This document shows, in pieces, positions 15,929 through 63,120 of a stretch of DNA of 64,000 bases. Position 1 is the stretch's first letter; every line of letters starts with the position of its first letter. The DNA is from an uncultured virus (IMG/VR IMGVR_UViG_3300042973_000010). Lineage: Duplodnaviria; Heunggongvirae; Uroviricota; Caudoviricetes. The stretch lies in the IMG/VR virus record IMGVR_UViG_3300042973_000010; one strand, 5' to 3'. The notes below the pieces were generated by a model. It did not search any database. It was not told the origin of the DNA and worked only from the letters and a program-made list of their open reading frames with translations. Made by a program: the position numbers and the translations under genes.

Positions 15929-18205
15929 TTACTGCAGAAAATCTTCCTCTGCGCCGCCCACCTCATGAATCTTTAAGCCCTTAAAATAGCGCTTCCGATT
16001 CAGTGTCAGCCGCTCGAATCCGGCTTTCTCCAGCGCAAAGTAAAAGTCTGCCGTGCTGCGCACATACTCATTGCAGTCCAGTGAGTAGTTGCGGTATGCC
16101 TGATAAAGTGCCGAGGAGCTTTCCTTAAAGGACTCATCCACATCGCACTTCTCGTCCAGAAAATGTCCGAACCAGTCGTTCTGGCTGCGATATTCATCGA
16201 TGGCCTTCGTCACGCAGTCCGGTACCGGAATCTGGTAGTCCAGCGCAATGACTTTTTTAGCACCTTCGATGATCCATGCCAGTATGCTTTCACCGGCATT
16301 TTCATACAGGTACTCACCGTAATTTTTGATGTCGGCCTTGCCCTCGATCTTGGCGTTGAACGGAATCACGATAAGCCTGCGCCAGATACCGTCATCGGAG
16401 GCGGAGACGCGAGGCAGGTGGTTCGTATATAGAACCAGCGTGTGGCAGGGCTTGAAGGAAAACGGGTCTTTATACTTTTTCTCCGCAAATACATCGTCCG
16501 TAGAGCAGAGCTGCTTGACGGTGGAGTCGTTGAGCCTTGCGCCTTCCTGCATTTCCGCAGCGATCAGCAGGCGTTTGCCTTTGACCTCAGCCATTTCCGG
16601 TTTGATGTTCCTGCGGCAGCCGACAGTCAGGGTGTCTGCGGATATATTTCCGCTGTAGAGTCCCAGCACGCGGGAGATGGCATTCCAGAAGGTGGATTTG
16701 CCGTTACGTCCATCGCCGTATGCGATGATGAGCGCCTCCACAAAAACTTTCCCGATAGCAGCAAGGCCGCAGATCATCTGTACATAGTCGATAAGCTGCT
16801 GATCCTTCTGAAAAATCAGATCCAGATTATCCTGCCAGAGCTGCGCTCCTTTACTTCCGGGTGACACGGACGTGATTTTCGTAATAAAGTCATCTGCTGA
16901 GTGCTCGCGGGCTCCGGCCATACCTTTACGAAGGTCGTAGGTCGCCTCCGGTGTGCAGAGCAGGAAGCAGTCCGCGTCTAGATCCCTTGGCGAGATTTCC
17001 AGCATCGGGTGCGTCTCTTTGAGGGTAGATGTAATGTTCTTGGAGTCGCGTCTACGGACGGCAAAGCTCTGGTAGGCCTTTGCAGGCAAGGAACTCCTGA
17101 TAGGCCTCCATCTGCTCGTCGCTCATCAGCTGTTCAGCTTTGGCCTTGGATGTGTTATCGAGTATTTCCTGCGCACCACAGTTTTTGAGCTTCTGCAGAG
17201 CCTCCATCATATTGCGATTGGCTTCTGCGAGCTGCCTGCGGGTGAGTTCATGAGCGACAGGCCTGTGCGCCGGGCTCTGTTTCCTGCCAGTAGTGATCGC
17301 TGTATCGGATAAAGTGTGTGGCTGGTGAGTAGCGCAGCTCGTTTGCAAAATACTTCGAGAGCACCTCGGCCTGTCCCGACGTCGGAAAAGTCCTCCGGCT
17401 TATAGCTGTTCTCTTCGTTATAGACTTCCGGAGGGACATATCCGTCCTCTCGGCTGATCTTGGAGTAAAAGCGCTGGGCGCTGTGCCAGATTGTACTAAG
17501 CTCGCTGTTATCCAGAGGCGGTACGCAGGTCGCGGCCTTTTCCAGAAAACTTTGGTAGGCTTTTTCCGTATCGCCGTATTTCTTTATGACGATACCGGCA
17601 AAGCGGGACATGGTAGCGTTGCGGCTTCCTTCCGGTATCACAACGTCTTTCTCGTGGCCACCGGGCAGGTCTGCATCGAACTCATCGTCATTCAAAAATT
17701 CCGTGAGGTTCATGCGACCGGGATAGAGCTCCACATTCGGCTCCTGTGTTCCGAAGAAGAAACGAGCAGCATCCAATGCCTTCGTATCGAAATACGGAAA
17801 TATGGAATTGACCAGCTTCTTCATATCGCTATAGAGGGCAGCATCCGTTACCCGGTCGATGGGAAAGAGCACATGGAACTTTGGCCTTGCCGGTTTGCCG
17901 TTTTTCTCGCGCTGATTAAAGCGGCTGTAATGGATGGCGAGGCTTACTCCCGGAAATGCCTCCAGCACGTCTGCCGGTGTGATCCAGTCTTTCGGATCTT
18001 CTGAATGGTCATTATCACAGTCCACGGGAAGACAGTCAGCGGAGAGGAAGTTGTCACTGTTGCGGTAGTGGTTTTTGTACTCCGCGCACACATAGTCGTG
18101 ACCGACTGCGTCTCTCATGCTGTCCGTATTCATGACAACGGTCTTATGCGGATAGGAGCAGTTTCCGGGATTGCCGATAAAATCGGCGCTAAACAGGGTA
18201 AACAT
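15929..18205 (-). CDS. P4-family primase-helicase (primase, PriCT, D5-like ATPase), split by apparent indels at 17050-17380
   Basis: DCDND primase motif, EGSRN PriCT, GDGRNGKST Walker A; C-terminus matches 63121..63981. Confidence 0.9.
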
Positions 18206-23601: not shown

Positions 23602-24126
23602 TTACTTGTTTTCGATCTTATGAAGCTCGGTGTAGTAGCGCTTCATTTGGTCAGCAAAGGTACGCTGCGGGCGACCGAGGGCTTCCGCGATCTTACGATC
23701 TGAAATCTTAGGATTGTCGAGGCGCATCTGGATAATGCGGTCTGCATCCGGATCAAGTTCGCGGAACCGGGCAATGAGGTGTTTGAGCAAATCGCGGTCA
23801 GCAATAATATCTTCTATAGAAGGTCTGCTGTCCGGAATGTAATCTCCAAGAGTGCCGTTGCCGTCCGGAAGCGGCTCGTCGAGAGAAGTGGTATCGGGAG
23901 CGTGGTATTCGCACAGGTCGCACTGCCCGTCGCATTTCCAGAGATAGCGTTTGGTGCACATGCAACGTCCATGATATTGCTCGCGTTTTTGTGTTGCCCA
24001 GATATCTGGATAGAGGGAACGATACTGCTCCTCGGTGATAGGGGTGAGTGTGACCTTGAAGGGATTCTCCGGGTCACGAAGTGGAAAGTAACGCTTGTTG
24101 TCATTGTTTTTCTTAGAATTTTTCAT
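23602..24126 (-). CDS. Phage sigma-70 region-4-like transcription factor with a Cys cluster
   Basis: CDGQCDLCEY, SLDEP, C-terminal SDRKIAEALGRPQRT HTH. Confidence 0.72.
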   Translation of the reverse strand: MKNSKKNNDNKRYFPLRDPENPFKVTLTPITEEQYRSLYPDIWATQKREQYHGRCMCTKRYLWKCDGQCDLCEYHAPDTTSLDEPLPDGNGTLGDYIPDSRPSIEDIIADRDLLKHLIARFRELDPDADRIIQMRLDNPKISDRKIAEALGRPQRTFADQMKRYYTELHKIENK

Positions 24127-24300
24127 TTTCGGTTCCTTTCTGAGCGAAAGGAGCCGAGAGAACGCAAAGCCGAAGTCATAAGAAACACAAATGGCCGGAT
24201 AACTCTGAAACATTGTGTTTCAAAGTCATCCGGCCATTTGGTAGTTCATCTCGACTCCGTTGCTCGGTATGCTTTGCGTATTAAGTTTTCGATTCAGTTG

Positions 24301-24495
24301 TTACATTCCTGCCTGCATTGCGTAAGCAGCAATACGGTTGTGGGAGGATTCCTTTACTGCTGACTCATCGCAAAGGATTTTTACGATGTGATTGCAGTTA
24401 GGACACTTGAGCTCGATGTACAGCTTTTCCTTCGGAATATCTGATACATCGCAGGCTCTCTTTCCACAAACGGGACATTTGAGCGGCTTGTTCAT
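24301..24495 (-). CDS. Com-like zinc-finger protein
   Basis: LKCPVCGK...IELKCPNCNH; strong AAGGAGG RBS. Confidence 0.65.
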   Translation of the reverse strand: MNKPLKCPVCGKRACDVSDIPKEKLYIELKCPNCNHIVKILCDESAVKESSHNRIAAYAMQAGM

Positions 24496-24510
24496 GCCTT
24501 CCTCCTTTCT

Positions 24511-24544
24511 TGTAGTATATAAGCGTGTTCGCTGATTTACTACA
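24511..24544. promoter_or_regulatory. 34-bp dyad operator upstream of the Com-like gene
   Basis: TGTAGTA-N3-AAGCG-TGTT-CGCTG-N3-TACTACA; second copy at 25742..25775. Confidence 0.7.
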
Positions 24545-24592
24545 CCTATGGTAAAAAATATGGGAATGCACCTGTGAGAGCACATTCCCGTG

Positions 24593-25342
24593 CTAACAAA
24601 AATATTCGTCGAGAGATAGTTCCTCTCTGGATACCAGTTTTAATTCCTGAAGCCGGTATTTCATGGGTGTGTAGTTGACACTGAATTTCTCGGCCAGTTC
24701 AGAAATTGCCTGATCGACATCGTAGGTTTTCGGAAGTGGTGCAGGCGGTGATGAACGTAAGCCCATTGTCTTAAGAAATTCAGCTGTGGCTGCCTCCCGT
24801 GGCATCAGGAATGCAGCAGCGCAGTAATTGGCTTGGTATTCAATGACCTCGATAGCGGACATGTTTGACCTGTCTCCGGTCTCTGCGCGGAAGGCTTTCT
24901 TCTGGCAGAAGTGCTGGTAATTTGCTGACCGATTCATAAAGCAGCGTGTATGAAGCTTCTGATGGAAGCATTCATGAATGCAGCTGAAGTTCTCGATTCC
25001 GCGATTGTCGCCCTCGTTGATACTCCGATCAATGATGATAGTTCCCTTCTCGACAGGAGTCTTTTTGGGAAACATCCCATTGAATACGATGTTGTCTGGC
25101 GGAGTCTCGTCGGCTTCATTGATGGGAATCCAAGCATAGTAGTAGCCGTTGTTGTAGGCTGTCATTCCAAGAATCGACTGATCCGGTGACAAGTAAAACC
25201 AGTCTGGCGTGCAGTGGATAAAATCCACCACGTCATATACATCAATTTTCTTAGGCCGGATAAGGCGTTCTTTGTCAAAAGACTCGTTCAGGCTGTCCGC
25301 CTCATTTTCGAGCTGGGTTTTGCTGTAGTCATAGTACCGCAA
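24593..25342 (-). CDS. ImmA/IrrE-family metallopeptidase
   Basis: HECFH (HExxH) and EYQANYCAAAFLMP; TTG start after GGAGG. Confidence 0.88.
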   Translation of the reverse strand: MRYYDYSKTQLENEADSLNESFDKERLIRPKKIDVYDVVDFIHCTPDWFYLSPDQSILGMTAYNNGYYYAWIPINEADETPPDNIVFNGMFPKKTPVEKGTIIIDRSINEGDNRGIENFSCIHECFHQKLHTRCFMNRSANYQHFCQKKAFRAETGDRSNMSAIEVIEYQANYCAAAFLMPREAATAEFLKTMGLRSSPPAPLPKTYDVDQAISELAEKFSVNYTPMKYRLQELKLVSREELSLDEYFC

Positions 25343-25343
25343 A

Positions 25344-25727
25344 TTACGTGTTGCCTCCGTTTTTTTCCTGATTTTCCAGCATGTCAATAATTTTCTGCCA
25401 ATCATCCTCACCGGCATTGATGTCACGTGCTTTACGAAGAGCAGTGCGGAGATTTCCGACACCCATCACATAGTCAGATAGATCAGGAGATACGCCGTTA
25501 TCTCTTGAGAGGGCAGCGTAGTCGAATAGCGTATTTGTGTCATCTTCGTTGAGACCCAGCACCTCAGCGATTTTATAGATTTTGTCTTTGTCTGGCGGAT
25601 ACCTCCTTCCTTTTTCAATATCGCTCATGTAAGCAGGGACAATGCCCAGCTCCTCGGCAAGCTTTCGCAGGCTGATTTCTTTCTCCTGCCTTTTGGCTTT
25701 TACAAATTCTCCGAATTTGTTTTCCAT
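25344..25727 (-). CDS. XRE-family HTH repressor (ImmR-like)
   Basis: FGEFVKAKR...SLRKLAEELGI...YMSDIEKG; paired with ImmA. Confidence 0.88.
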   Translation of the reverse strand: MENKFGEFVKAKRQEKEISLRKLAEELGIVPAYMSDIEKGRRYPPDKDKIYKIAEVLGLNEDDTNTLFDYAALSRDNGVSPDLSDYVMGVGNLRTALRKARDINAGEDDWQKIIDMLENQEKNGGNT

Positions 25728-25741
25728 GACGATCCTCCTTT

Positions 25742-25807
25742 CGTAGCATGTAAGCATGTTCGCTTAAATACTACACTAAGTATACACAGTTGCTTCAACG
25801 AAGTCAA
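25742..25807 (-). promoter_or_regulatory. SigA-type promoter of the repressor with a downstream dyad operator
   Basis: TTGACT-17-TATACT (25807..25779); operator 25742..25775. Confidence 0.72.
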
Positions 25808-26003
25808 GGGCTCAAATGTAAATTTTCTTTAAACGGTGGCACATGCCCTTAGCAAAAAGCAGGCGAGGAAATCTACAGTAGTACAGTGAACATGGGCTAT
25901 TTCTCAGACCTTCCGCGTTCGACCGTCTAAGAAGTGGAAGTATTTTTATTGCGGTACACGAGATATTTAATGCGCAAATGCAAATTTTTAATCTGAAATC
26001 AGG

Positions 26004-26032
26004 TTGAAATCTCTCGGCTGATGTGTTATAAT
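26004..26032 (+). promoter_or_regulatory. SigA-type promoter of HTH-hsdM
   Basis: TTGAAA-17-TATAAT with extended TGn. Confidence 0.7.
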
Positions 26033-26082
26033 TTATAAGGCGTCTTTTGCCGATAGGACTCTAATGGTTAGGAGGAGAATAC

Positions 26083-26304
26083 ATGGCAGTCAGCTATAAG
26101 AAATTATGGAAATTACTAATTGATAAAAATATGAAGAAAAAGGACTTAAGAGCTGCCAGCGGGATCAGCACAACAACACTTGCGAAACTTGGCAAGGATG
26201 AAAACGTCAGTACTGAAATCCTGTCGAAGATTTGTGCTGCCCTGAACTGTGATGTCGGAGACATCATGGAAATGGTGCCCGATGATTCGAAGGATGTGGA
26301 ATAA
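26083..26304 (+). CDS. Cro/C1-type (HTH_26-like) regulator
   Basis: MAVSYKKLWKLLIDK...KICAALNCDVGDIME. Confidence 0.88.
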   Translation: MAVSYKKLWKLLIDKNMKKKDLRAASGISTTTLAKLGKDENVSTEILSKICAALNCDVGDIMEMVPDDSKDVE

Positions 26305-27090
26305 ATGAATGGCAAAGACAATAAACAGACAAGGAGTTTTTTAAATATGAATCAGTCAACGTATAACGCATTGAAATCCTTTATCTGGGGAATCGCTAAC
26401 GATTGCCTTGTAGATGTATATGATGTGGGCGACTACAGGAAGGTCATTCTTCCGATGCTGGTCATCCGCCGTTTTGATGCGGTCTTGGAGCTGAAGCACG
26501 ATGAAGTGGTAGCGGCAAAGAAGAAATTCGAGAAGGACGGAGTCACTGTCGATATTGATCCTGCGCTCTGCGGAATAGCTGGACAGGCCTTTGTGAACAA
26601 GTCTGACTTCACGCTGCGTGACTTGAAGTCCAGAACGAATCAACAGCAGCTCCGGAAGGACTTCATCGACTACCTCGATGGATTTTCCAAAAATGTACAG
26701 GAGATCATTAATAAGTTTCATTTCCGGGATCAGATTCCGCGCCTTTCCGAGCAGGATAGGCTTGGATTGCTTATCGAGAAATTTGTCGATCCGAGCATCA
26801 ACCTCAGCAATAAGCCTGTTCTAAATGAGGACGGCTCTGAAAAATTGGAGGCACTTGATAATCATACAATGGGTACCCTGTTTGAAGAGGTTATCCGTAT
26901 GTTCAATGAGCAGACAAATGTGACAGACGCCGGACGCCACTTTACGCCGCGTGACATTATCGAGCTCATGGCCGACCTTGCCTTTATCCCGATTCAGGAT
27001 AAGATTCAGAGCACCACATATAGAATTTATGAAATCAAGACGCAAAATTGGATACAATTTAACGATTGCCCTCTCAGGGGTGTCGCTTGA
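26305..27090 (+). pseudogene. hsdM: Type I R-M methyltransferase subunit, 5' fragment truncated near 27030
   Basis: FIW.IA, ILP...RR.D, MGTLFEE.IR.F, AGRHFTPR; expected D..CG.GG motif after RIY is replaced by an unrelated 19-aa tail. Confidence 0.88.
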
Positions 27091-27138
27091 GAATTTGGGG
27101 TGTCGGTTTTACATGCCTTCTATATAGTTGATTTGGGT

Positions 27139-27170
27139 AACGTCGGGTCATTTCCCGACGTTTTATTTTT
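27139..27170 (+). terminator. Terminator-like hairpin
   Basis: AACGTCGGG-tcattt-CCCGACGTT then TTATTTTT. Confidence 0.6.
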
Positions 27171-27240
27171 GTGGCCACAAAAATATTGACAGAGAATGTG
27201 AAAGATAGTACATTGTAAATTGTTTCTGTGGCCACAAAAA
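27167..27240 (+). promoter_or_regulatory. Promoter flanked by two TGTGGCCACA palindromes
   Basis: TTGACA(27186)-17-TACATT; TTTTGTGGCCACAAAA at 27167 and TGTGGCCACAAAA at 27227. Confidence 0.75.
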
Positions 27241-27256
27241 CTAAGTGAGGTGTATT

Positions 27257-27727
27257 ATGGCAAGACCCAAGAAGAATGACGCGCGGGATATCGTATATAA
27301 AGTTCGTCTCAATGAAGAGGAAGACAAAATTCTCACAGAAGCAAGCGAATGGACTGGCCAAGCCAAATCTGAGGTCTTTCGAAAAGCTCTTCTCGATTAC
27401 TATAAGGCAGTCAGGGTAAATAAATATATTTCAGATTCCGATATGGAAGCTTCTGGATGGGACTTTGATCATATTTCTTTACAAAGAGTAATAACTTGCC
27501 CATACGATGATTGCGGAGATGATTTTGCAGTGGATTTTTCTGATTATAGTGAAGAACAGGAGTCTGAGGGCTCAATGGGTTACCGCTGTGAGCATGTTTT
27601 TGATACACATGAAATTGAGTGCCCTTCGTGTGGTCGCCCTATACATGCTTCTGGTGTTATTTCAGAATATCCACTTGGAGCGTATGAATACGAACGGATC
27701 TCTGTCGAAAAAGAGGAGGAAGAATAG
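27257..27727 (+). CDS. Putative RHH-like regulator fused to a Zn-ribbon domain
   Basis: YKVRLNEEE...KSEVFRKAL; CPYDDC and CPSC. Confidence 0.65.
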   Translation: MARPKKNDARDIVYKVRLNEEEDKILTEASEWTGQAKSEVFRKALLDYYKAVRVNKYISDSDMEASGWDFDHISLQRVITCPYDDCGDDFAVDFSDYSEEQESEGSMGYRCEHVFDTHEIECPSCGRPIHASGVISEYPLGAYEYERISVEKEEEE

Positions 27728-28561
27728 ATGGCAAAAGAGCCTTTATACAGAAGAATTCCTGAGGACGGAAAACATCCTGCGAATTCAAAAAAACACCCAG
27801 GCGCAATTAGCGGAGCCGCACTTGATGATGAAACAAATAAACCTTCTGGGACATCGGATTTTGAACCGGTAGGGATGAGCGAAGAAGATTATCTTCGCGT
27901 GCAGCGGAAGGTGGCTTTTTGGAGCCCGATTGTAGAGACAGTCATTAACAGTGCGTTTGATGGAATCGAATACTTGTGGTACACGAGAGCACTTCCCAAG
28001 CTGGAATACGAGATTATTCCTTCCGCAAAAAATAAGTTTGTTGCTTGGTGTAAACGGACATTCGGTAGGCAGGGAGAAGAAGCACAATCGACGAAAAATG
28101 CCGGTGTGGAAAAAACATTAAAAGCAGACATCGTTACCATCAGTCTTCCTGCTGATGTAGATACTGCCTATCAAAATTATACGATCAACATGACCAGTGA
28201 AGAAGCACAGAAGGAGTTATTCGAAGCCTTTGTTCTACAGTACCTAAGCATGAAAAAAATTCAGCGACTGTCCAATGCAAGGATAGTTGATGCTGAAGGG
28301 AATGTTATTACTGGAACCAAGGCTATGAAAAAACTGGCCGATTCGAACATCATTAATAGTATCAACCAGGTGCTTTCAAGCAATCCTATGCTATTGAACG
28401 AATGGGAAGCTAAAGCTCTCACGGAAGCTTTGGGGATTCCACCAGCGGAACTGTTACATATCTCCCCAGCCGAGAAGACTCATACGAACGGCTTCTGGAG
28501 GGAAACAAGCAGTTTCCCTCCGATGACGAAGATGTGGACGATGCCGCGATTAAGGCCGTGA
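27728..28561 (+). CDS. Hypothetical protein; C-terminus probably chimeric
   Basis: 277-aa ORF with GAGGAG RBS; last ~30 codons overlap a sigma remnant in another frame. Confidence 0.6.
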   Translation: MAKEPLYRRIPEDGKHPANSKKHPGAISGAALDDETNKPSGTSDFEPVGMSEEDYLRVQRKVAFWSPIVETVINSAFDGIEYLWYTRALPKLEYEIIPSAKNKFVAWCKRTFGRQGEEAQSTKNAGVEKTLKADIVTISLPADVDTAYQNYTINMTSEEAQKELFEAFVLQYLSMKKIQRLSNARIVDAEGNVITGTKAMKKLADSNIINSINQVLSSNPMLLNEWEAKALTEALGIPPAELLHISPAEKTHTNGFWRETSSFPPMTKMWTMPRLRP

Positions 28562-28746
28562 TGATCGAAAAAATGCTAACCTGCCTTAACCACCTCAGCA
28601 CGGAAAAACAGAAGTTGATTACCGCTCTGTTTTTTGATAATAAAAGCGAGCATCAGGTGTCCAGAGAAACTGGTGTTCCACAGCGGACCATTCACGACCG
28701 AAAGATAAAAATCTTGGCGAAATTAAAAAGACTCATGAATGAATGA
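28472..28746 (+). pseudogene. 3' remnant of a sigma-70 region-4 (ICE Orf7-like) gene
   Basis: EDSYERLLE...LNHLS...KLITALFF..KSE..VSRETGVPQRTIHDRKIKILAKLK. Confidence 0.65.
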
Positions 28747-29028
28747 AGCTCTCGGCTCCCCCTCGCTGCATAAAGGCGAGGGGGAGCTATCCTTTGGAGA
28801 TGATAGTAAAATAGGGACAATTAGTATTGTTCGTATGGTAATGTAGAACATGGCGAGTGCGGCACAACTCCGAGGAACACCTGAACATGACGTGGGGTCA
28901 AAACGTTTGCTGGTTTGATTGGGAAATGATTTTTTCAATAAGGAAAAAGTAATTATTTTTTTATGCTCACCATCTAAGATAACCCTATCGAATTAGCATT
29001 TTAAAACATGCCCTATCAGATTTTCGTC

Positions 29029-29078
29029 TTGACAACCGTTCGATTTTGAACTATAATTTTACGTGTTCAAAATCGAAC
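29029..29078 (+). promoter_or_regulatory. Consensus SigA promoter with two MarR-type operators
   Basis: TTGACA-17-TATAAT; GTTCGATTTTGAAC (29038) and its exact reverse complement (29065). Confidence 0.85.
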
Positions 29079-29103
29079 ACTAAGGTGCGTGAGGTAATTA
29101 CAT

Positions 29104-29556
29104 ATGAAAAACAATTTTTGGAACATGCTCAAAGAAGTTGAAAGCGCCTATAATTTTCACCGCAGAAAAGTTATGAACAAATATTCTCTCTCGGCAATAG
29201 AAGTAGATGTTATGTTATTCCTTGCGAACAACGGCGGCCTTAATACGGCTGCCGATATTGTATCTGTACGAAAAATATCCAAATCTCACGTCTCACTGGC
29301 GACAGACGAGCTTTATAAAAAAGGGTACATTTGCAAAAAAGTAGACTCGGCGAATAGAAAGCGGATTTGTTTGTTTATTACTCCAAAGGCCGATGAGATA
29401 GTCCGTTATGGGCAAGAACAACAGGAAGAATTCATGAAAAAGATCGGTGACGGGTTTTCGGAAGATGAGAAAAGGCAGTTCTTCGACTCTTTTGATCGAA
29501 TCATTGACAATGTCCGCCGCTTCTACAACGTGAAACCGAAAGAATCAACGGACTGA
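29104..29556 (+). CDS. MarR-family regulator
   Basis: ISKSHVS....L..KGYI....D..NRKR..L.IT. Confidence 0.9.
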   Translation: MKNNFWNMLKEVESAYNFHRRKVMNKYSLSAIEVDVMLFLANNGGLNTAADIVSVRKISKSHVSLATDELYKKGYICKKVDSANRKRICLFITPKADEIVRYGQEQQEEFMKKIGDGFSEDEKRQFFDSFDRIIDNVRRFYNVKPKESTD

Positions 29557-30971
29557 TGGAAAGACAAAAGAAACGGAGGACAATTATGGAAAAGGCACAT
29601 AATGAAGATAAGAGTTTCCTCGGTACAGAACCAATCAGGCCGCTTATGTTTCGCCTTTCTGTACCAGCAATTCTTGCCCAACTGATCAATGTTCTATACA
29701 ACATTGTGGATCGTATCTACATCGGCCATATGCCAGAGGTTGGCGGGTTGGCGCTTACCGGTCTGGGCGTGTGCACACCGCTCATTATCATCGTGTCGGC
29801 TTTCGCCATGCTGGTTGCGATGGGAGGAGCGCCCAATGCTTCCATTGAGATGGGCAAAAAAAACGACGAGGGAGCCGAGCACATTATGGGCAGCTGCGTT
29901 GCCTTGCAGCTTGTAATCTCCGCTGTGCTTACCGCAGCCCTGCTAATTTGGAACCGACCCTTGCTTTTAATGTTTGGGGCCAGTGAAAACACCATCGGCT
30001 ATGCATCCCAGTACATGAACATCTATGCGATTGGTATCGTCTTTGTACAATTAACCTTGGGCATGAATGCATTTATCACGGCGCAGGGTTATGCAAAAGT
30101 AAGCATGTACACGGTTTTGATCGGGGCAATCTGTAATATTATCCTTGACCCAATCATGATCTTCGGCATGAACATGGGGGTGCGCGGAGCAGCTCTGGCG
30201 ACAATCATATCTCAAGGAATCAGTTGCGTGTGGGTAATTCATTTTCTCACTTCCCCAAAAAGCAGCATCAAGCTCCGGATGAAAAATATCAGATTTGACA
30301 ATGTCCTTCTGTCCTGCGTAGCACTGGGTGCAGCTCCGTTTATAATGCAGGCAAGCGAAAGCATCATTTCTATCTGCTTCAATTCCTCCTTGCTGAAATA
30401 TGGCGGAGATATTGCCGTGGGTGCCATGACGATTCTGAGCACTGTGATGCAGTTTGCCATGCTGCCGATGCAGGGTTTTGCGCAAGGTGCTCAGCCGATC
30501 TCCAGCTACAACTTTGGTGCTCACAATTCAGCTCGTGTCAAGCAGACCTTTCGACTGCTTTTGATCTGTTGCTGTACCTATTCCGTATTGCTGTGGGTTG
30601 CCGTGCAGATATTTCCGCAGGTTTTTGCCTCATTATTTACAAATGATACCGCAATGGTGGCGTATACTAAAAGTGCATTACGTATCTACGCCGGTGCCAT
30701 GTTTATTATGGGCGTTCAGATAGCCTGCCAGATGACCTTTATCTCCCTCGGGAATGCCAAGACTTCAATTTTCGTAGCAGTATTCCGAAAATTTATCATG
30801 TTGGTCCCACTCATCTATCTTCTCCCCATGCTGCTACCTGATAAGACAGTAGCCGTGTATCTTGCCGAACCGATTTCAGATACTGCTGCGGTGATCTGTA
30901 CTGGTATTGTGTTTGCGAAAGAATTCAGAAAAGCGATAAAAAAGTTGGATGAAGGCCCGCACGACAATTGA
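29556..30971 (+). CDS. MATE-family efflux transporter (MepA-like)
   Basis: LYNIVDRIYIG, NIILDPI.IF..GVRGAALAT; many TM segments. Confidence 0.93.
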   Translation: MERQKKRRTIMEKAHNEDKSFLGTEPIRPLMFRLSVPAILAQLINVLYNIVDRIYIGHMPEVGGLALTGLGVCTPLIIIVSAFAMLVAMGGAPNASIEMGKKNDEGAEHIMGSCVALQLVISAVLTAALLIWNRPLLLMFGASENTIGYASQYMNIYAIGIVFVQLTLGMNAFITAQGYAKVSMYTVLIGAICNIILDPIMIFGMNMGVRGAALATIISQGISCVWVIHFLTSPKSSIKLRMKNIRFDNVLLSCVALGAAPFIMQASESIISICFNSSLLKYGGDIAVGAMTILSTVMQFAMLPMQGFAQGAQPISSYNFGAHNSARVKQTFRLLLICCCTYSVLLWVAVQIFPQVFASLFTNDTAMVAYTKSALRIYAGAMFIMGVQIACQMTFISLGNAKTSIFVAVFRKFIMLVPLIYLLPMLLPDKTVAVYLAEPISDTAAVICTGIVFAKEFRKAIKKLDEGPHDN

Positions 30972-30979
30972 GATGAATC

Positions 30980-31099
30980 ATGCCGACCTTCAATACTGAA
31001 AAAGGAACTGGACTTGGGCTGATCATTGCCAAGGGAGATATACAGCTATTAGATGGTGTTTTTTCACGCGGCGCAATTCGTTTGTTTCGATCAAATTAA
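30980..31099 (+). pseudogene. Histidine-kinase ATPase (G2 box) remnant
   Basis: Short frame encoding KGTGLGLIIAK...L.G. Confidence 0.45.
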
Positions 31100-31766
31100 A
31101 AAAAGCGCTACAAAAAAGCGTGAGTTTGGCGGGTCTATCTTCATGCCTGAATAAGCAATACCGTAACCCTTCAAGCTCACCAGTCTGGAGGGTTTCTATG
31201 TCTGCTCAATTTACCATGAATTTCAGGCGACCGCTATTAAGTAGCGGTCGAGCGTGATGCAACGGATCACAATCCGCTACACACCGCTTTTCTAACCGAT
31301 AGCTCGTCAAAAAAACCTGTGCTTTTCAAGGAAACAGCGCGGGCAGCAGCACGAACCATCAGAGCAGATAAAATATGAAATAATTTACAGGAGCATACCT
31401 GTGGGCAACCGTGCTCACAAGTACGTTCCTGTTTTTTTGCTTGCAGTTATATCATGCTGCCGAGTTCCGTCGCTTATTTTTCATTTTCAGATTTCAACAA
31501 TCACGAGATGGATGACAGACACTATGGCAAAATATCAGAAAATAACGGATTATCAAGCAAAATATCTCGATGTGAGCAAAGGGATCATCGACGTTTTGGA
31601 GAAAAACGACCGTCAGATGGAATACCTGCAGTATGACATCAAAGCCGAGCGATGCCGAATCGAGAGAATTAATACAAAATGACTGCTATATGCCGATTAA
31701 GAGATCGGAGTTACTCACACAGATTAATACGATAGCATTGAGTAAAAATTAGTAATCAGGGAAGAG

Positions 31767-31812
31767 AAACAGCCTGATCGCCAGCGTTGTTTACTGGTAG
31801 TCAGACTGTTTT
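31767..31812 (-). terminator. Terminator-like hairpin after the recombinases
   Basis: AAACAGTCTGACTACCAG...CTGGCGATCAGGCTGTTT imperfect stem. Confidence 0.55.
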
Positions 31813-31813
31813 C

Positions 31814-33397
31814 TTATGCCCGAATTTCCTGTCCATTGCGGAAGGTGAAGCGGATGTCGTCATTGGCGTAGATCGTCAGGTGATCGACGAGTCCGTTGAA
31901 GGCATCGAGGGAGAATTCCGTCAGGCTCTCGGGCGTGTTTTCGAATGCCTTGAGGAAGTCCTCGTACCCAGCTTTCCGGGATTGAGTTTCTTCGATTTTT
32001 GCGGTGAGCTCTTCGATGCGGGTCTTGAGCTTATCGTACCGGTCGGCAAGGTCGTCGTAGCGCTTCTTATAGGCGTTCTGGTCGAGAGCCGTCCGGGCGT
32101 TCTCCACGATGTTTTGCTGCACTGCGTCCGCCACCATCTGTGCCTCATCCAGGAGCCGGTCGCGCTCGGCTTCCAGTTCGTCGGTCTTGAAGAGGAACGG
32201 TAGCATCTCTTTGCCGTTGGCGATGACCTCGGTTTTTGTTTCAAGCAGCTTGTTCACCGCCGAGAGGAACGCGGTTTTCACTTCGCTGTCGTCTATGGCT
32301 GGCGTGGTGCATTTCTTGCAGCCATCGTATTTATGGTTACAGCGCCAGATAGTTTTCCGATATTTGCTGTTGGAATGCCAGACCTTGGAGCCGTAGAAGG
32401 AGCCGCACTGCCCGCAGCGGATTTTGCTGGAGAAGACGTGTACGCCGCTGTGGTACATGATGCCGTTGCCGCGCTTCTTCATCTCGCGCTGGACCAGGTC
32501 GAAGGTCTCCGGTGCGATGATCGCTTCATGGTCGCCTTCCACGTAGTACTGCGGGATTTCGCCCTCGTTGACCTTCGTCTTTTTCGTGAGGTAGTCGACT
32601 GTGTAGGATTTCTGCAGCAGGGCGTCGCCCTTGTATTTCTCGTTTCCGAGGATGGACTTGACGGTACTGATGCTCCAGTGATCCTTGCCGCCGGGTGTCT
32701 TGATGCCGTCATTGGTAAGCTGCTTGGCGATGCCGTTGTAGGTCAGGCCCTGCAGGAAGAGCCGGTAGATGCGGCGGACGGTTTCTGCCTCCTCTGGGTT
32801 GACGATGAGCTCGCCATTCGGACCGCGGTCGTAGCCGAGAAACCGGTGGAACGGAACCGTCACCTTGCCGTCTGCGAATCGCTTACGTTGTCCCCAGGTG
32901 CAGTTCTCGGAAATGCTACGGGATTCCTCCTGCGCAAGGCTCGACATGATGGTGATCAGCAATTCACCTTTTCCGTCGAAGGTCCAGATGTTCTCCTTCT
33001 CGAAGTAGCATTCGACGCCGTTTTCCTTGAGCTTTCGGATGGTTGTCAGGCTGTCGACGGTGTTCCGGGCGAATCGGCTGACGCTCTTGGTGACGATCAG
33101 GTCGATCTTCCCGGCAAGCGCGTCCTCGATCATGTTCTGGAATCCAATTCTCTTCTTGATGCCGGTTCCGCTGATTCCCTCGTCCGTGTAGACATTCACG
33201 AATTCCCAGTCATCACGGCTTTTGATGTAGTTCGTGTAGTAGTCGATTTGCGCCTCGTAGCTGGTGAACTGGTCGTCATGGTCTGTTGAGACGCGGGCGT
33301 ATCCGGCGACCCTGCGCTTTTTCTTCTCTGTGATGGGAGTGGAGGAAAAGCGCGTCCGGGATGCCGGGATCGTGGTCACTTTCTTTTGCTGCTCCAA
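31814..33397 (-). CDS. Large serine recombinase
   Basis: YARVST, DEGISG, KSVSRFARN, AQEESRSISEN, CGQCG Zn ribbon. Confidence 0.95.
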   Translation of the reverse strand: MEQQKKVTTIPASRTRFSSTPITEKKKRRVAGYARVSTDHDDQFTSYEAQIDYYTNYIKSRDDWEFVNVYTDEGISGTGIKKRIGFQNMIEDALAGKIDLIVTKSVSRFARNTVDSLTTIRKLKENGVECYFEKENIWTFDGKGELLITIMSSLAQEESRSISENCTWGQRKRFADGKVTVPFHRFLGYDRGPNGELIVNPEEAETVRRIYRLFLQGLTYNGIAKQLTNDGIKTPGGKDHWSISTVKSILGNEKYKGDALLQKSYTVDYLTKKTKVNEGEIPQYYVEGDHEAIIAPETFDLVQREMKKRGNGIMYHSGVHVFSSKIRCGQCGSFYGSKVWHSNSKYRKTIWRCNHKYDGCKKCTTPAIDDSEVKTAFLSAVNKLLETKTEVIANGKEMLPFLFKTDELEAERDRLLDEAQMVADAVQQNIVENARTALDQNAYKKRYDDLADRYDKLKTRIEELTAKIEETQSRKAGYEDFLKAFENTPESLTEFSLDAFNGLVDHLTIYANDDIRFTFRNGQEIRA

Positions 33398-35169
33398 TGT
33401 TTCTCACTCCTTATTCTCTTCATGTTTTCGCTGATTTTCTGCCTGCGTTCCGGTGTGAAGCTGTCTCGGATGGCTTTGGTCTGCTTTTCGCGGCGCTCGT
33501 CCGTCCATGGGATGCCTTCCTTACGGAATTCGTAGTCGCGCCCGACAGTCGAGCCATCTTTGAGATGGAATGTAAGATGCGTCAGCCCGCGGACCGAGAT
33601 GAAGTCGATGCATTCCTTGAATGCTTCCTCGCTGAATTCCTCAAGACCCAGCACCTGTGTGATGATTTCCTTCAGATGATCCTCACGCAGGCTTTTGCCG
33701 GGATGGTTTTTCTTGTCGGCGCACTTCCAATAGGCGTTCTGGTGGCCGTCGGCCATGACGCATGTCTGCTTGCGGTAGTTGCAGCCGCATTCCTCGCAGC
33801 GGATCTTCGTGGTGAAGCAGGTGATATCGTCACGGGTGACCGGGTGCCGTCTGCGGTACTGAGATGCACGCTTCCGATTCTCCTCAGTCCACGATTCCTT
33901 TTTCGCATTCCGGTACCAGTGGTGTTCAAGCGTGGTGCCGTCCGTGAATTCGAAGATCATCGTCCCGGACTCAGGAACCGTAATCCGTTCGACACGCTCA
34001 GAGAAGATGTCCTCGTCAAATTCCGGGATGCCGAGCACCTTGGCGCATTCCTCTTTGAGGACGCTTTCGCGGATCGTTCCGCTGCTGCAGGACGAGCAGT
34101 TTGTTTTCTTGTGTGAGGTGCAGGCCCAGAAGGTGTATTTCTCTCCGAGCCTGCTCATCTTTGCTCGGTTCCTCCGTGTGGAGCGGACGAAACTTCTGCC
34201 GCATTGTCCGCATTTGATTTTCGTGGAGAAGCAGTTCAGGGTGAGCGCCTTGTTGCCAAAGCAGCCAAGCTCCCTGCGCCGCGCCATTTCGGCCTGCACG
34301 TAGTCGAATGTTTCCTTGCTGATGATGGCCGGATGCGTGTTCTCCACATAGTATTGCGGCAGCTCGCCGCGGTTCTTCTTGACCTTCTTCGTGATCGGAT
34401 CAGCGATGTATTCCTTTTGGTAGAGCATGTTGCCCGTGTAGGTAACGTTCGTGAGGATCACCTTCAGATTGGAATCCACCCACGGCGCTCCGGCACGCGT
34501 CTTGATGCCTTCGGCGGCGAATTCCTTCTCGGTTTCCTGCCGGGATTTCCCGTCAAGGAAGTTCTGGTAGATGCGGCGTACGATGGCGGCCTCCTCCGGG
34601 ACGATGACCATCTCGTCACTTTCCCACCGGTACCCGTAGACGTTCATGTGACCGTTTGCATAAGGCAGTCCGGCCTGCATCCTTTTGCGGATTCCCCACT
34701 TCACATTGTTGGAGATGCTTTCGGTTTCAGACTGTGCAAATGAGGCGAGCAAGGTGAGCATGACCTCGCCGTCACCGGAAAGCGAGTTTATGTGCTCCTT
34801 TTCGAACCGCACCTCAATGCCCAGCTCCTTGAGATGCCGGACGGTCTCCAGCAGGTCGACCGTGTTCCGCGCGAACCTGCTGATGCTCTTGGTGAGGATG
34901 ATGTCTATCTTCCCGGCTTCGCAGTCAGCGAGCATACGCTGGAACTCAGGCCGTTTCATGGTGCTTGTACCGGTGATGCCTTCGTCCGCGTAGACACCTG
35001 CATACTGCCATTCCGGATTCTTCTGGATCAGCTCCGAGTAGTAGCTGACCTGTGCGGAGAGGGAATGGTGCAGGCGCTCGGTCTCCATCGACACACGCGC
35101 GTATGCCGCCACCTTCTTCCGCTGTGGTAGAGCCTTGATTTTAGGCTCAATTTTCGTGATTTTCGGCAT
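33376..35169 (-). CDS. Large serine recombinase (second, with two Zn-ribbon regions)
   Basis: YARVSM, KSISRFARN, CGQCG and CEECG. Confidence 0.93.
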   Translation of the reverse strand: MPKITKIEPKIKALPQRKKVAAYARVSMETERLHHSLSAQVSYYSELIQKNPEWQYAGVYADEGITGTSTMKRPEFQRMLADCEAGKIDIILTKSISRFARNTVDLLETVRHLKELGIEVRFEKEHINSLSGDGEVMLTLLASFAQSETESISNNVKWGIRKRMQAGLPYANGHMNVYGYRWESDEMVIVPEEAAIVRRIYQNFLDGKSRQETEKEFAAEGIKTRAGAPWVDSNLKVILTNVTYTGNMLYQKEYIADPITKKVKKNRGELPQYYVENTHPAIISKETFDYVQAEMARRRELGCFGNKALTLNCFSTKIKCGQCGRSFVRSTRRNRAKMSRLGEKYTFWACTSHKKTNCSSCSSGTIRESVLKEECAKVLGIPEFDEDIFSERVERITVPESGTMIFEFTDGTTLEHHWYRNAKKESWTEENRKRASQYRRRHPVTRDDITCFTTKIRCEECGCNYRKQTCVMADGHQNAYWKCADKKNHPGKSLREDHLKEIITQVLGLEEFSEEAFKECIDFISVRGLTHLTFHLKDGSTVGRDYEFRKEGIPWTDERREKQTKAIRDSFTPERRQKISENMKRIRSEKHWSSKRK

Positions 35170-35226: not shown

Positions 35227-35391
35227 TTACGGGGATAATAATGTGCCGATTATCGGGCTGTATTTCTCCTTCATTTTGGTGTCTATGACCGCGTATTCAT
35301 CCTCGGTGATAAGGCCCTGATCCAGCATCGCATGGAACATTTCCATACTCGCCTGATAGAGCTTTTCGCGTTCGAACTGCTCATCATTCAT
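35227..35391 (-). CDS. Small SHOCT-like recombinase-associated protein
   Basis: ML.QGLITEDEY..ID..M.EKY.P. Confidence 0.7.
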   Translation of the reverse strand: MNDEQFEREKLYQASMEMFHAMLDQGLITEDEYAVIDTKMKEKYSPIIGTLLSP

Positions 35392-35806
35392 GTCCGCCAC
35401 CGCCTTTGAACCGATCTTGGATATAACAGGCGTGGGAGCAGTACTTGCGGTGACGGTTTCCATAGGCTGTGAAAGTCTTTCCACAGCAGGCACAGGTGAA
35501 TGTGTAGAACGCCTTTTTATTGACGTCGCCGGGGTGACTGTTCCACCATTTGAGGCGGCAGGCATCCGAGCAGAACTTCATTTCCTTTCGTCCGGGGTGT
35601 TGCATGAGTGGCTTTCCGCAGCATTGGCAGTAAGCTGCACCCGGAGTATTTCCATCATTTGGATCGGCGAGCCTGCCGGTGAGATAGTTTCGTCTGCAAT
35701 AAGCCGAGACCTGGCTTTTGGTAAGCCCCAGCGCTCGAGCTATCGATGCATATCCATATCCTTCTTTGCGAAGGCGGCATATTTGTTCTTTTTGTTCTGT
35801 GTTCAT
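35384..35806 (-). CDS. HTH plus Zn-finger protein (candidate recombination directionality factor or regulator)
   Basis: GYGYASIARALGL; CQCCG, FCSDACR, CACCG, YCSHAC. Confidence 0.75.
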   Translation of the reverse strand: MNTEQKEQICRLRKEGYGYASIARALGLTKSQVSAYCRRNYLTGRLADPNDGNTPGAAYCQCCGKPLMQHPGRKEMKFCSDACRLKWWNSHPGDVNKKAFYTFTCACCGKTFTAYGNRHRKYCSHACYIQDRFKGGGGHE

Positions 35807-41992: not shown

Positions 41993-43897
41993 TTACCTCC
42001 ATCTGCTCTTGGCCCTGATGACCAGTTTTTTAAAGGATGACTTTCCCGGAACGGAAAGGCGGATACTCTTAAATTTCGGTGTTTTAGCGGTATCCGAAGT
42101 TGTAAGCGTCACCCGAAAACGGATGTAATTTGCAGATACAGATTGAATTTTATCTTCCACATCCGGCGCAGCCCATTCACTCCATGTGATCAAATCATCC
42201 GAAGTGGAAGTCTCGGCCATTACACCCGTTCCTTCCGGCTGTTCTGAGTCAACGGAAAGATAACATGCCCCGATAATGCCATAGGAAACAGCTTTTGTTG
42301 TAAGAATTCCGCTTGCCGGATAGACACCTCCGGATGCCTTTAGGATGACCGCGCCAGCAGTTGTCAGTCCATCCACATCCGATGCGGAATCTGCCGCATT
42401 GGCAAATAGGGACGCCTTAAACCACGAAGCGATCTCTTCTGCGGTCAGGCTAAAGTCACAGTCTATAAACCAGTCATCAAAGTTTCCTGAGTACCAGTAG
42501 GAATCGGCGTGCATGCCCCAGATAAGGTCCGCCGTACAGGAACGGTTCAGTTCCCCGGTAAACTGAACCACTTCCGATATCCAGGTCTCCCCAGACGTTC
42601 TGCTGCCAAGGACATACTGGGCTGTTTTATCGTTCGGTTTGATCAGGCATACAAGGAAATACCACTCCCCGTTGCTTAGGGAAAAGGAAGGAGAGAAATC
42701 CTGATCAAGAATCAGCGTCCCAGAAGCATCATAGAGCATCAGCCTTGGTTTTCCGGAGTGCAGCGACAGATAAAAGATCGGTTGTCCTGGCCCATAGCGG
42801 GTATTCAGCAAAGGTGTAAAGGTATTTCCGACCGAGTAGGTGGTCGGCATAAACCAGCCACCAACAGCGACCGTCTTCCCGAGGGAAGAAAACAGCGTGT
42901 TATCATTGGCCACTTTGAGATATGTTTTCTCTGTTAGTGGATTGTTGATGTTTATCCGAAACGATCGTCCCAAATGTCCTGTCTGCAGAGAGACGGTAGT
43001 ACCGCTCCAGTTCTGGACAAAAGCCTTTCTGCCTTTGCTGGACGAATCAGACAAGCAGGTGTCCGCATCCGGCGCGGATTCATTGAACCGACAGAGACCA
43101 TCCGGCCCCCAGACATCCGGGACTTGCCCGGTAAAATTATCCTGAGTGTCCAGACCTGTCACCGTCTGTCCTGCACCATCATCTGCCTCAATCACTATGG
43201 TGTTCGTACCCGGCTTAAAAAATGGAAAATCCATAGCGGACAGCAGGGGCAGCCCATTTCGAAGCATATTTCCACCTGCATCGATCACCTTTGCCGTCAT
43301 AAGCGAGGAGTCGATGACAAGAATTTCGTTTTCCGAAAGAGGTCCCTCTTCCTGCATTATTTTCCCATTTGTGTTAAGAACTACATGCTTTTCCTTGGGA
43401 AGATCTGCAGTAAGAGAATATACCGGCAGAGAGCTTGCGTTTCCAAGATCTCGTATGACTTCATGCGTTCCGGTTTCTGTGATTTCATAACACTCATCTT
43501 CTTTTGCATAGGCATAAGGGTCGGGGCAGAAAAAGACAAGGTCAAAGGTGCAGGAATTGCGCACGGCCTTATCAAAGGAAAAGCCGCCTTCCAGTCTTGC
43601 CTGATAGATCCGTCCCGGTTCTTTGTCGAGAATCAACGGGCAAAGCCCAATATCAGGATTCAACCATGCAATAATCTCATCCTTCCGTGTAAGGAAATCC
43701 GCGTCACCTTTTCCGGGCGGGATGAAGCAGGAAATCTCGATCTTCCGTTCTCCGATGGTTTCGCCGAAATCAAAGATGCCTTCGCGGCCCGAAACCGTGA
43801 TGGTATGGTTAGTAAAATCCGGCATCCGGTTTTCCTTTGTCATACGCGTGGCAAGTCCGAAACTCTGCGACGTCCTGCTATTAAATGTAAAGCCCAT
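41993..43897 (-). CDS. Distal tail protein with inserted LamG-like region
   Basis: MGFTFN start, F.CPDPYAY, follows TMP. Confidence 0.8.
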   Translation of the reverse strand: MGFTFNSRTSQSFGLATRMTKENRMPDFTNHTITVSGREGIFDFGETIGERKIEISCFIPPGKGDADFLTRKDEIIAWLNPDIGLCPLILDKEPGRIYQARLEGGFSFDKAVRNSCTFDLVFFCPDPYAYAKEDECYEITETGTHEVIRDLGNASSLPVYSLTADLPKEKHVVLNTNGKIMQEEGPLSENEILVIDSSLMTAKVIDAGGNMLRNGLPLLSAMDFPFFKPGTNTIVIEADDGAGQTVTGLDTQDNFTGQVPDVWGPDGLCRFNESAPDADTCLSDSSSKGRKAFVQNWSGTTVSLQTGHLGRSFRININNPLTEKTYLKVANDNTLFSSLGKTVAVGGWFMPTTYSVGNTFTPLLNTRYGPGQPIFYLSLHSGKPRLMLYDASGTLILDQDFSPSFSLSNGEWYFLVCLIKPNDKTAQYVLGSRTSGETWISEVVQFTGELNRSCTADLIWGMHADSYWYSGNFDDWFIDCDFSLTAEEIASWFKASLFANAADSASDVDGLTTAGAVILKASGGVYPASGILTTKAVSYGIIGACYLSVDSEQPEGTGVMAETSTSDDLITWSEWAAPDVEDKIQSVSANYIRFRVTLTTSDTAKTPKFKSIRLSVPGKSSFKKLVIRAKSRWR

Positions 43898-46649
43898 CAG
43901 ATCACCGTTCCTTTCGCCCGCCTACTTCCTGTCAGCAGATTGTTTAACTGCTGGGAAATTCTGCGGATATCATCGTCATTTCTAACGTTCATTTCCTGAA
44001 TGTTGATAAGCGGCTGCTCACCGGATGCTATAGAGGCAGTGCTACTCACGGCATCTTTGATCATAGAGCGAAGCGAATTTACGCCGACGACGGCTTCCGC
44101 ACCGGCCTCGCCTCCGGCAAGCAGGCTGTTTCCGCTCATCCCGAAGATGGTCGGCGAATCCAGAATCATGCCGTTTCCCATTGCCTTCTTATACCAGTCC
44201 ACAGAAAAATACGGGATGGACGGCGGGTTGAGCGAGAAGCTGCCGGAAATGGAGAAGTGCGGCAGTTTAATCTTTGGCAGTTCCCAGTTGAAATTGAAGA
44301 TGCCCTTGAGCTTATCTACAATTCCGGATACAAAGCTCCAGATGCCGTTGAACACGCTGCTGAACACATCCTTAATGCCGTTCAGGATTCCGGAGATTGT
44401 ATTATGGATTGCGTTGAAGGCTGTGGAGATGCCGGTCTGCATGGCATTCACAACGCCCATGACCACACTCTTGATGCCGTTCCAAACGGTGGTGAAAACT
44501 GTACGGATTGCATTGAAAACCGTGCTGGTAACCGTCTGGATGGTATTCCATGCCGTTGTAATAAAGGTCTGAATCGCGCTGACCACTGTGGTTATGACTG
44601 CTTTTATTGCGTTCCAGATGGCAGTGACAACAACACTGATTGCCGTCAGAACGGTTGTAATGATCGTTTTATAAAATTCAAAATAGGTCGTCACGACGAG
44701 CTGGATCGCGGTAAAGATGGTTTCAAAGAAAGTCTTGATTCCGTTCCAGATGGTCCGAGATCACCGTGCTGGATGGCCGTCATGACGGTTTCAACCGTCG
44801 GTCTTGATCGCCGTTCCAGGCATCCGGCAAGGAACGTGCCGATGGCCGTGCACGGCGGTCGTGAATACACGTCTGTGATCGCCGTGCCATGATCGGCGTC
44901 AAAGAAGTCCTTGATCGCCGTGAACACCGTAATGACAGCGTCTGCCTTGATGCCTGTCCCAGAGGCCGATCCAGAACTGCCGGAAGCTCGTCGCAGTTAT
45001 TCCACAGATAGATGAATGCCGCGACCAGCGCAGTCCGATGGCCGCAATGATCAGGCCGATCGGGTTGGCCGGCCATCGACCGCGTTCAAGGCTCCTGTGA
45101 TAACGGTTTTCACGCCGGTGTCAGCCGCCGTGATCTTCGGTATGACAGAAGTGAGGATCGTCCCGACCGCCGAGATGATCAGCTTGCCGATGACCATGAG
45201 AACAGGTCCCACGGCTGCGGCAATAAGAGCTATCTTCACGATGGTTTCCTGCACGGGTCCGGGAATGCCGTTCCAGATGTCCGCGAACTTCTGAAGCGCG
45301 GCCGAGATGTCCTGCAGGACAGGCTTGAGAACAGTCGCGAGGCTGTTTCCGATGTCAGCGCCGACTTCCTTCAGAGAGTTCAATGTCATCTGGAACTGGT
45401 CGATCGGGTCGAGTGTCTCGTTGAACGTGTTTTCCACACTGCCGGAGAAATCGCCGAGCGTGCCGGACAGATCGTCAAGGTTGAGTTTCCCGCTCTGCAC
45501 GGCGTTGTAGAATGCAGCGCCCGCCTTGCTTCCGAACAGGTCGTAGGCGGCCTGCAGCTTCTCGGTGTCCGACTTGTTGGAACTCATCGTGTCGGAGAAA
45601 CCTTTCAGCGCCTCATCGAGGGACATGCCGTCGTCCGCCGCGTTCTTCATGGCTTTCTTAAGACCGGCCATCGCCGTTGAAGTGTCGAGACCGGACATTT
45701 CCACCATGCCCATGAATCCGGCGGCCTGCTGGGCGGTCAGTCCCATCTCCTTAAACTGTGCGGCGTTCTGCGACAGGTCGTTTGCCAGCGTGTCCATGGA
45801 GATCCCGGTCGCCTGTCCGGTGGCGTTCAATGCATCCAGAAGGTCGCCCGCGTCGTCCGTGGACTGCCCGAAGGCGTTCAGAACAGAGGAAACGTTATCG
45901 ACGGAGGTGGATACGTCCGTGTCGTTCAGCTGCGCGAACTTGATGAACTTGCCCGACAGATCCTCAAGCGCCTGCCCGGTGAGACCGAATCTTGTGTTGA
46001 CTTCGCCGACGGCCGCGCCTGCGGTTTCAAAGTCCGTCGGAATCTGCGTCGCGAGATTCTTGACGCTCTGCTGCATTTCTTCAAGCGCCTGCCCGGACGC
46101 ACCGGTTTTCTGCGTCACGATGTCAAGTCCGGAGTCCACTTCGCCGAAAGCGACAAGAGAAGCCGCCCCGAGAGCGGTGATCGGCGCAGTCACGCCTTTG
46201 GAGAGGGATTCGCCGACGCCTGAGATCTTGCCGCCGACTTCCTGCATCTTGGAACCGGTCTGTTTTAGTGTGGCCGCAATACTGGAATCCGTATTCTTTG
46301 TCTGTTCCTCGAGGTTCTTCAGTTCCTGCTCGGTTGCGATGATCTCACGCTGCCATGCGTCGTACTGTTCCTGTGTGACGCTGCCGTTTTTAAGACCCGC
46401 GTCCATCTGATCCTGCACCGATTTCAGCTGTGTGAGCTTGTCCTTGGTTTCCGTCACCGCCTGAGAGAGCAGTTTCTGCTTCTGGGCGATGAGCTCGGAG
46501 TTGGTCGGATCGAGTTTCAGGAGCTTGTTTACGTCCTTGAGCTGGGACTGGGTGTTCCTGATTTCCTTGTTGACGCCGGACAGCGCTTTCGAGAGGCCGG
46601 TCGTATCGCCGCCGATCTCGACTGTGATGCCTTTGATTCTGTCAGCCAT
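43897..46649 (-). CDS. Tail tape measure protein (garbled frames at ~44690-45070)
   Basis: 45051..46649 plus 43897..44694; W-periodic repeats; GEAGAEAV. Confidence 0.88.
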
Positions 46650-61207: not shown

Positions 61208-61278
61208 GCATTTCTCCTTGAAAAACCTGAGGTGTGCAGGTCTCGATAGTCATTTCCTAAAACCTCTATATAAATTTT

Positions 61279-63053: not shown

Positions 63054-63120
63054 TAAATTTTTATTTTTTCTCTATAGGGACTTTTGTATATAGACCTTCT
63101 CGACCTGCACACTTTTACTT

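Follow-up and report, generated by a model that had tools for sequence, protein, structure and literature searches.

The window analyzed here, a stretch of 64,000 nucleotides from the uncultured tailed-virus record IMG/VR IMGVR_UViG_3300042973_000010, contains two related prophages, L and R, in the same orientation and ~45 kb apart, together with a truncated type I DNA methyltransferase gene, hsdM, at the boundary between them. Prophage L (1–26304) has its recombinase end outside the window, to the left, and carries minus-strand genes for head, tail and replication, followed by regulators, as assigned by PHROG and Pfam; its PHROG matches include TerL, protease, helicase, polymerase and exonuclease. 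A helix-turn-helix gene (26083–26304) opens the defense cargo of L, and the 5′ half of hsdM follows on the plus strand (26305–27030), stopping right before the Asp codon of motif I, the S-adenosylmethionine (SAM)-binding motif. Beyond this point come R's terminal cargo (27245–28434, plus strand), consisting of a gene for a ribbon-helix-helix-domain protein (27245–27727) and a further open reading frame (ORF) that starts at 27728 and is interrupted at 28434, then an insert (28435–31661, plus strand) and two overlapping large serine recombinase genes (31814–33397 and 33376–35169, minus strand). The rest of R (35401–64000, minus strand) comprises lysis, tail, head and helicase genes and runs on past the window; PHROG matches to portal, TerL, protease and helicase accompany its phage head and tail genes.

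A sequence-only reading of this DNA had observed that hsdM similarity stops near 27030, where the SAM-binding motif should begin, and had seen no 3′ half in the window; both observations hold. The ORF at 26305–27090 (plus strand) matches HsdM_N and only positions 3–42 of N6_Mtase in Pfam, and MTase_I in PADLOC, and tblastn with an intact 703-residue relative matches the window at 26305–27033 only. Upstream, a promoter-like site at 26004–26032 is a consensus match only. By comparison with related genomes, the gene is intact and continues through DGACGTGG in all seven IMG/VR loci that contain a relative of this hsdM. In five of the seven, the protein is 98–100% identical and the locus is colinear with L, at 89–99% DNA identity from ~16.3–18.2 kb onward. 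All five of these close relatives match the window DNA as far as 27032, the second base of the GA in the motif-I Asp codon, and no further. Motif-I DNA found in metagenomes is likewise intact in 12 of 12 matches and is preceded by L-like DNA over 1.1–5.8 kb. One relative (L011) continues from intact hsdM into genes for the type I specificity and restriction subunits (hsdS and hsdR; PADLOC), completing a set of which the window retains only the hsdM 5′ half. A further virus record, G484, is colinear with positions 3–27032 of the window at 94–97% identity. Because close relatives contain an intact, uninterrupted hsdM behind L-like DNA, hsdM is L's own cargo and the break is an insertion, with R sitting inside L. 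The earlier suggestion that the restriction-modification system is carried by a related prophage gains the backing of all five close viral relatives and all 12 metagenome matches, which place hsdM behind L genes.

Identity of the window to relatives of R starts at 27031, and the overlap of the two identity limits defines a crossover dinucleotide, GA (27031–27032, plus strand), with which the motif-I Asp codon opens. The hsdM half is the B arm of this left junction; the P′ arm of R's attP follows at 27033–27057, and a conserved terminal sequence extends to 27112 (plus strand). Positions 27031–27057 constitute one arm of an inverted-repeat attP common to R's relatives. Window positions 27031–27112 match two places in contig C8 of genome G001; a recombinase pair stands 0.3–1.8 kb away from each, and the truncated methyltransferases that precede them differ. 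Right ends in relatives read arm, GA, then a D-P/F-A-C-G reading frame. The two arms, which occur together at four attP-like junctions, are imperfect inverted repeats around GA (TTGTATCAA-N7-GTCTTRAT and its complement). Inverted-repeat arms about a short crossover are the anatomy expected of a serine-integrase attP, and the ~50-bp length and inverted symmetry about a 2-bp crossover found here are the features by which sites of large serine integrases are recognized. In the window the arm occurs once, at 27031 and not at ~31770 (0.03 copies expected by chance), and two R-like prophages without this cargo have it 0.3–0.4 kb from their recombinase end. Given the shared arm and the intact relatives, the hsdM break is an attachment junction of R's serine recombinase family, as the sequence-only reading had proposed; the opposing case, with R's att at ~31770 and another decayed element at the break, is at odds with the position of the sole arm and with its place in those two prophages. 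The att end had no blastn match among GenBank phages, and a search with it across 101 genomes related to G001 matched G001 only.

Two side observations concern these sites. Repeats of GGGGTGTCG at 27077 and 27097, just inside the left end, are also found in relatives and near a right end, and are possibly sites for an accessory factor. An intact attP-like site (L103, G105 C2 55434–55485) stands in a 1.6-Mb contig without an adjacent R-like phage, 12 kb from a recombinase fragment.

The recombinases nearest the break are, as had been noted, R's two large serine recombinases, both on the minus strand. Each has Resolvase, Recombinase and zinc-ribbon domains with the catalytic serine motif (YARVS in recombinase 2), and they are 35% identical to each other. 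Recombinase 2 (527 residues) is 54% identical to the Phi1207.3 resolvase and 72% identical to a recombinase of Ca. Heliusvirales NatCom_35866; recombinase 1 has ~597 residues. We considered and rejected an integrase shared by L and R: the recombinase of G484, L's closest full-length relative, is 35–39% identical to R's, and those of G483 are 34–47% identical. L therefore probably uses a different integrase, which means that R would be exploiting L and not repeating R's own site.

To define the target range of R's family, we collected junctions from viral pattern scans (8 and 15 hits), a genome scan, family genomes and the 80 best recombinase loci. The genome scan with an 18-mer gave 57 hits, 15 of which extend into the arm, the other 42 being dropped as chance. 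The arm pattern occurs in 9 of 401 family genomes versus 2 for a reversed control, with L189, which lacks GA, taken as chance, and the arm is present at 24 of the 80 recombinase loci. Merging identical flanks left 40 distinct left and 28 distinct right junctions. The left junctions comprise 27 methyltransferase 5′ halves, four attP-like sites and nine others, and all 27 methyltransferases are cut at the same D/E codon site, which in Mod is that of DPPY. By our own classification these are 14 type I HsdM, five type III Mod, two PglX of bacteriophage exclusion (BREX) systems, one type IIG enzyme, four Eco57I-like or related enzymes and one RlmL-like rRNA methyltransferase. PADLOC confirms 19 of the 30 left fragments whose length permitted a scan; class otherwise follows from PADLOC for the window gene, Pfam for the RlmL-like gene and intact homologues for two short flanks, and is by visible likeness only for L042, L229, L199 and L201. 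Among the right junctions, 15 begin with the methyltransferase motif, two are degenerate, two are attP-like and nine are other sequences, with PADLOC matches in 15 of 20 scanned fragments, one of them weak. Left and right fragments abut in the profiles (for example at 189/190, 194/195, 122/123, 312/313 and 365/366). The two ends rejoin into one gene in G109 (mod), G474 (hsdM) and the GenBank entry NatCom_35866, and do so across contigs in G113 and G001. This share of methyltransferases is not a matter of chance, because N6_Mtase has only 10 matches in the 3.7 Mb of G001. Ordered by identity of the recombinase to R's, the targets are type III Mod at 99%, HsdM and one non-methyltransferase site at 95%, PglX at 88%, type IIG at 85% and HsdM again at 84%.

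Most of the information in the target site lies to the right of GA. With a matrix built from 15 methyltransferase flanks and scored against 26,309 random GA sites, L's own hsdM site ranks in the top 0.04%, and eight of the nine non-methyltransferase right flanks fall in the top 8% (near-duplicates reduce the nine to about six independent sites). The enzyme thus appears to recognize a DNA consensus corresponding to the codons of the methyltransferase motif. Two non-methyltransferase target sequences recur in arm-bearing elements of different genomes (L148, L152, L188 and L194; L149 and L187). The same att module also marks defense-island-like elements: an 18.5-kb element with the same att arms (L167–L168, G109 C4 112983–131475) lies in a type III mod gene and contains fragmented recombinase ORFs and large non-phage cargo genes.

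Taken together, we consider it about 85% probable that R entered L's hsdM by means of its serine recombinase pair at the motif-I DNA site. R would be a temperate phage whose recombinase pair recombines an inverted-repeat attP with a loosely specified bacterial site, with crossover at GA and a site consensus equivalent to the coding sequence of the SAM-binding motif D/E-P-x-C-G-x-G or of DPPY in type III Mod; which recombinase acts, 1 or 2, we can only infer. Since restriction and BREX systems form part of the terminal cargo in this phage group, a resident relative would itself offer a target. In type I systems, HsdM is needed for restriction. Since the truncated HsdM is cut ahead of its SAM-binding and catalytic motifs, both methylation and restriction would be expected to stop while the cell survives, and hsdS and hsdR would be parted from the upstream promoter-like site by >37 kb. 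Excision of R would be predicted to restore the hsdM frame, and the L-R composite is probably too long for packaging, which would leave L unpackaged until R excises.

Several observations weigh against this account. No arm was found at 56 of the 80 recombinase loci, among which are many truncated or more distant ones. Flanks outside methyltransferases make up 9 of 40 left and 9 of 28 right junctions, about a quarter to a third, and one more such junction, L237, was excluded by the mismatch limit. A right junction joining R to the 3′ half of L's hsdM was not seen for the host, and none of the 12 metagenome motif matches shows it; R-like prophages place R's far end ~27 kb (G104) or >14 kb (G001) beyond 64000. 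In G104 contig C5, the two ends come from different hsdM genes, which would need misassembly or rearrangement. The junction-bearing contig of a second study's run reaches only ~28 hsdM letters leftward, below our 31-letter bridging rule. Finally, nesting inside a relative is the minority state: the window, G001 C8 and G475, the last with an inner element of rearranged appearance, each have an element within a relative's cargo methyltransferase, giving 3 of 13 nested and 10 of 13 not nested among the junctions with at least 7.7 kb of flank to which this check was limited (L223 and L225 were left unassigned), and no attR was found for the inner element of G001.

Why methyltransferases should be the target is a separate question. 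Targeting could be an evolved counter-defense or inter-phage weapon that switches off restriction or BREX systems of the host or of a resident relative, a tentative proposal to which we give somewhat less than even odds. DNA methyltransferases of restriction or BREX type account for 26 of the 27 methyltransferase left junctions, and family members carry such systems themselves. In most targeted classes, the methyltransferase is part of a restriction machine, so insertion would not kill the cell. Use of an RlmL-like rRNA methyltransferase and of recurrent non-methyltransferase sites speaks against a weapon, as do the fact that an integrating phage is already past restriction and the rarity of defense genes among targets overall in the accessible text of Durrant et al. 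(PMC10083194). Between a selected defense target and a merely handy, conserved and dispensable site, we lean slightly away from the former. With the same reserve, we can picture a Heliusvirales-like clade whose integrase is tuned to SAM-motif DNA and disarms type I, type III, type IIG and BREX systems on entry, including those of resident relatives, which it would trap, such that stacked prophages would reflect phage-against-phage parasitism; this picture may well be wrong.

R could instead act as a switch in active lysogeny, excising whenever a working hsdM is called for. Two-base crossovers that restore the frame exactly in complete elements, the four attP-like junctions, and a run (X3) with a depth of 14.8 on the L side versus 7.1 on the R side and a contig break at 27032, as a second path would produce, fit such a switch. 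The depth step may simply reflect two strains, however, and so wide a range of targets does not suit a dedicated switch, which we regard as improbable. Another arrangement, in which L and R are tandem neighbors in a host hsdM that is not L cargo, draws on the nine of nine upstream flanks checked that lack family phage markers, so the family does enter methyltransferases outside family prophages. In all five viral relatives and all 12 metagenome loci, however, hsdM runs unbroken from L's replication and regulator genes, and no att arm lies between L genes and hsdM, making this arrangement very unlikely. Least credible of all is that the junction is a chimera of assembly, or that two related prophages underwent homologous recombination: the run that may be the source of the window, in which a single identical piece covers 24000–33000, has a depth of 3.4, both prophages contain frameshifts and G104 has mismatched ends, but the joint lies precisely at the GA where 26 other methyltransferase junctions cross over, its two sides lack homology, and the second study's contigs, without differences on either side, overlap at the joint.

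Several family members have defense systems as far-end cargo. L has a type I system there, the R-like prophage of G104 has BREX and IetAS, that of G001 has hsdM and hsdS of type I, G474 has an hsdM, and the cargo of NatCom_35866 includes two motif-I genes.

Insertion of serine integrases in hsdM and integration of one prophage into another are both already in print. According to the accessible text of Ambroset et al. (2016, PMC4701971), streptococcal integrative and conjugative elements (ICEs) with triplets of serine integrases insert in hsdM. R shares with them serine recombinases in a row, insertion in hsdM, a very short (2–8 bp) direct repeat and coding sequences between recombinases and target, the last present only sometimes in the ICEs; it differs in being a tailed prophage with two recombinases instead of three, in belonging to a family that uses several methyltransferase classes at one motif, and in having cargo of a related prophage as its target. 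Phi1207.3 and Phim46.1 of Streptococcus pyogenes (PMC4260502) resemble R in their overlapping terminal recombinase pair, DNA polymerase A, SNF2 helicase and restriction-modification cargo; Phim46.1 inserts in the rum RNA methyltransferase gene, and the accessible text describes neither DNA-methyltransferase targeting nor nesting for them. Ca. Heliusvirales (PMC11283538; for example NatCom_35866, PV036449.1), a group with nine marker genes, resemble R and L in the kinds of marker gene seen among the PHROG matches of the two prophages; the accessible text calls their common recombinase a DNA invertase and gives no integration site. R's recombinases have counterparts of 63% and 72% identity in NatCom_35866, which also contains both att arms and flanking methyltransferase halves. 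In PV036449.1, att junctions at ~3348 (L299) and ~60067 (L392), with methyltransferase halves outside them, delimit a prophage proper of ~56.7 kb.

Prophage clusters arising from an attB inside a resident prophage are known in E. coli (Nakamura et al. 2021, PMC8112680), and R and L are alike in this respect. As far as the accessible text goes, the E. coli attB is host-derived and near effector gene clusters, whereas R's is a coding motif of the resident's defense gene, which is cut in two. For large serine recombinases at large, the accessible parts of Durrant et al. (2022, PMC10083194) report that close orthologues use many target gene clusters, that type I restriction-modification genes are among rare targets with no enrichment in defense genes, and that DUF4368 occurs in 63% of a multi-targeting clade. 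DUF4368 has no Pfam match in R's recombinases at E≤0.001, and the relaxed site of R matches the code for a protein motif, whereas an AT-rich motif is given there for multi-targeting recombinases. We found no published report of one integrase clade targeting methyltransferase motifs across classes in a search that left out most subscription papers and covered supplements for PMC10083194 only, whose full att tables, like other supplements, may hold such sites.

To these precedents the window adds a nested case with intact relatives for comparison. There are several implications. First, an attP, a crossover and a target consensus are now defined for a widespread phage group for which we found no published integration site. 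Second, any restriction or BREX methyltransferase, chromosomal or prophage-borne, would become a landing site, linking lysogeny to loss of methylation-based defense and to an altered host methylome. Third, such insertions explain why Bacillota genomes contain prophage stacks and methyltransferase ‘pseudogenes’ that are split, and host methyltransferase halves are included in at least one complete phage genome on deposit. Finally, the division of labor within the two-recombinase module becomes testable.

The cargo region of R has a history of its own. The sequence-only reading had assigned all of 27030–31770 to R's terminal cargo; this stands for 27245–28434 and fails for 28435–31661, a 3227-bp insert in which no recombinase was seen and which contains the end of a sigma-70-like gene, marR (29104–29556), a MATE transporter gene (29556–30971) and the start of the sigma-like gene, which is thus split (Pfam). 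Among four sequencing runs compared over 24000–33000, two contain the empty-site joint 28434>31662, and three contain the back-joint 31661>28435 at a depth of 22–407, versus 7–25 for R's left cargo. The unit has a 2-bp GA overlap and is, by these joints, a third element within R's cargo; the back-joint may represent a circle or an intact chromosomal copy. In L164 and L165 the marR-MATE-sigma unit is opened at another point and adjoins R-family recombinases. The opening point in the window resembles R's target (top 0.6%) and the other does not, faintly suggesting that insertion by R's enzymes is possible. The cassette had no match among plasmids.

Elsewhere in R, a small SHOCT_2-domain gene (35227–35400, minus strand; Pfam) is kept upstream of the recombinase pair, and a role as directionality factor would be a guess. 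An ISL3 element (~61278–63060) with a short target duplication lies between R's primase gene and the next gene and is absent from the R-like prophages of G001 and G104. The tape-measure genes of R and L (43897–46649 and 139–1483) and the L primase gene (15929–18205) are split into several frames; since the assembly may have low depth, frameshifts in both prophages do not count here as proof of decay. A 25-bp inverted repeat with a 3-nucleotide loop (24188–24240) stands at the start of L's sigma-like gene and is kept in L relatives, and a 58-bp element occurs in five copies (9738, 10946, 54611, 55127 and 56374) ahead of small genes in both prophages.

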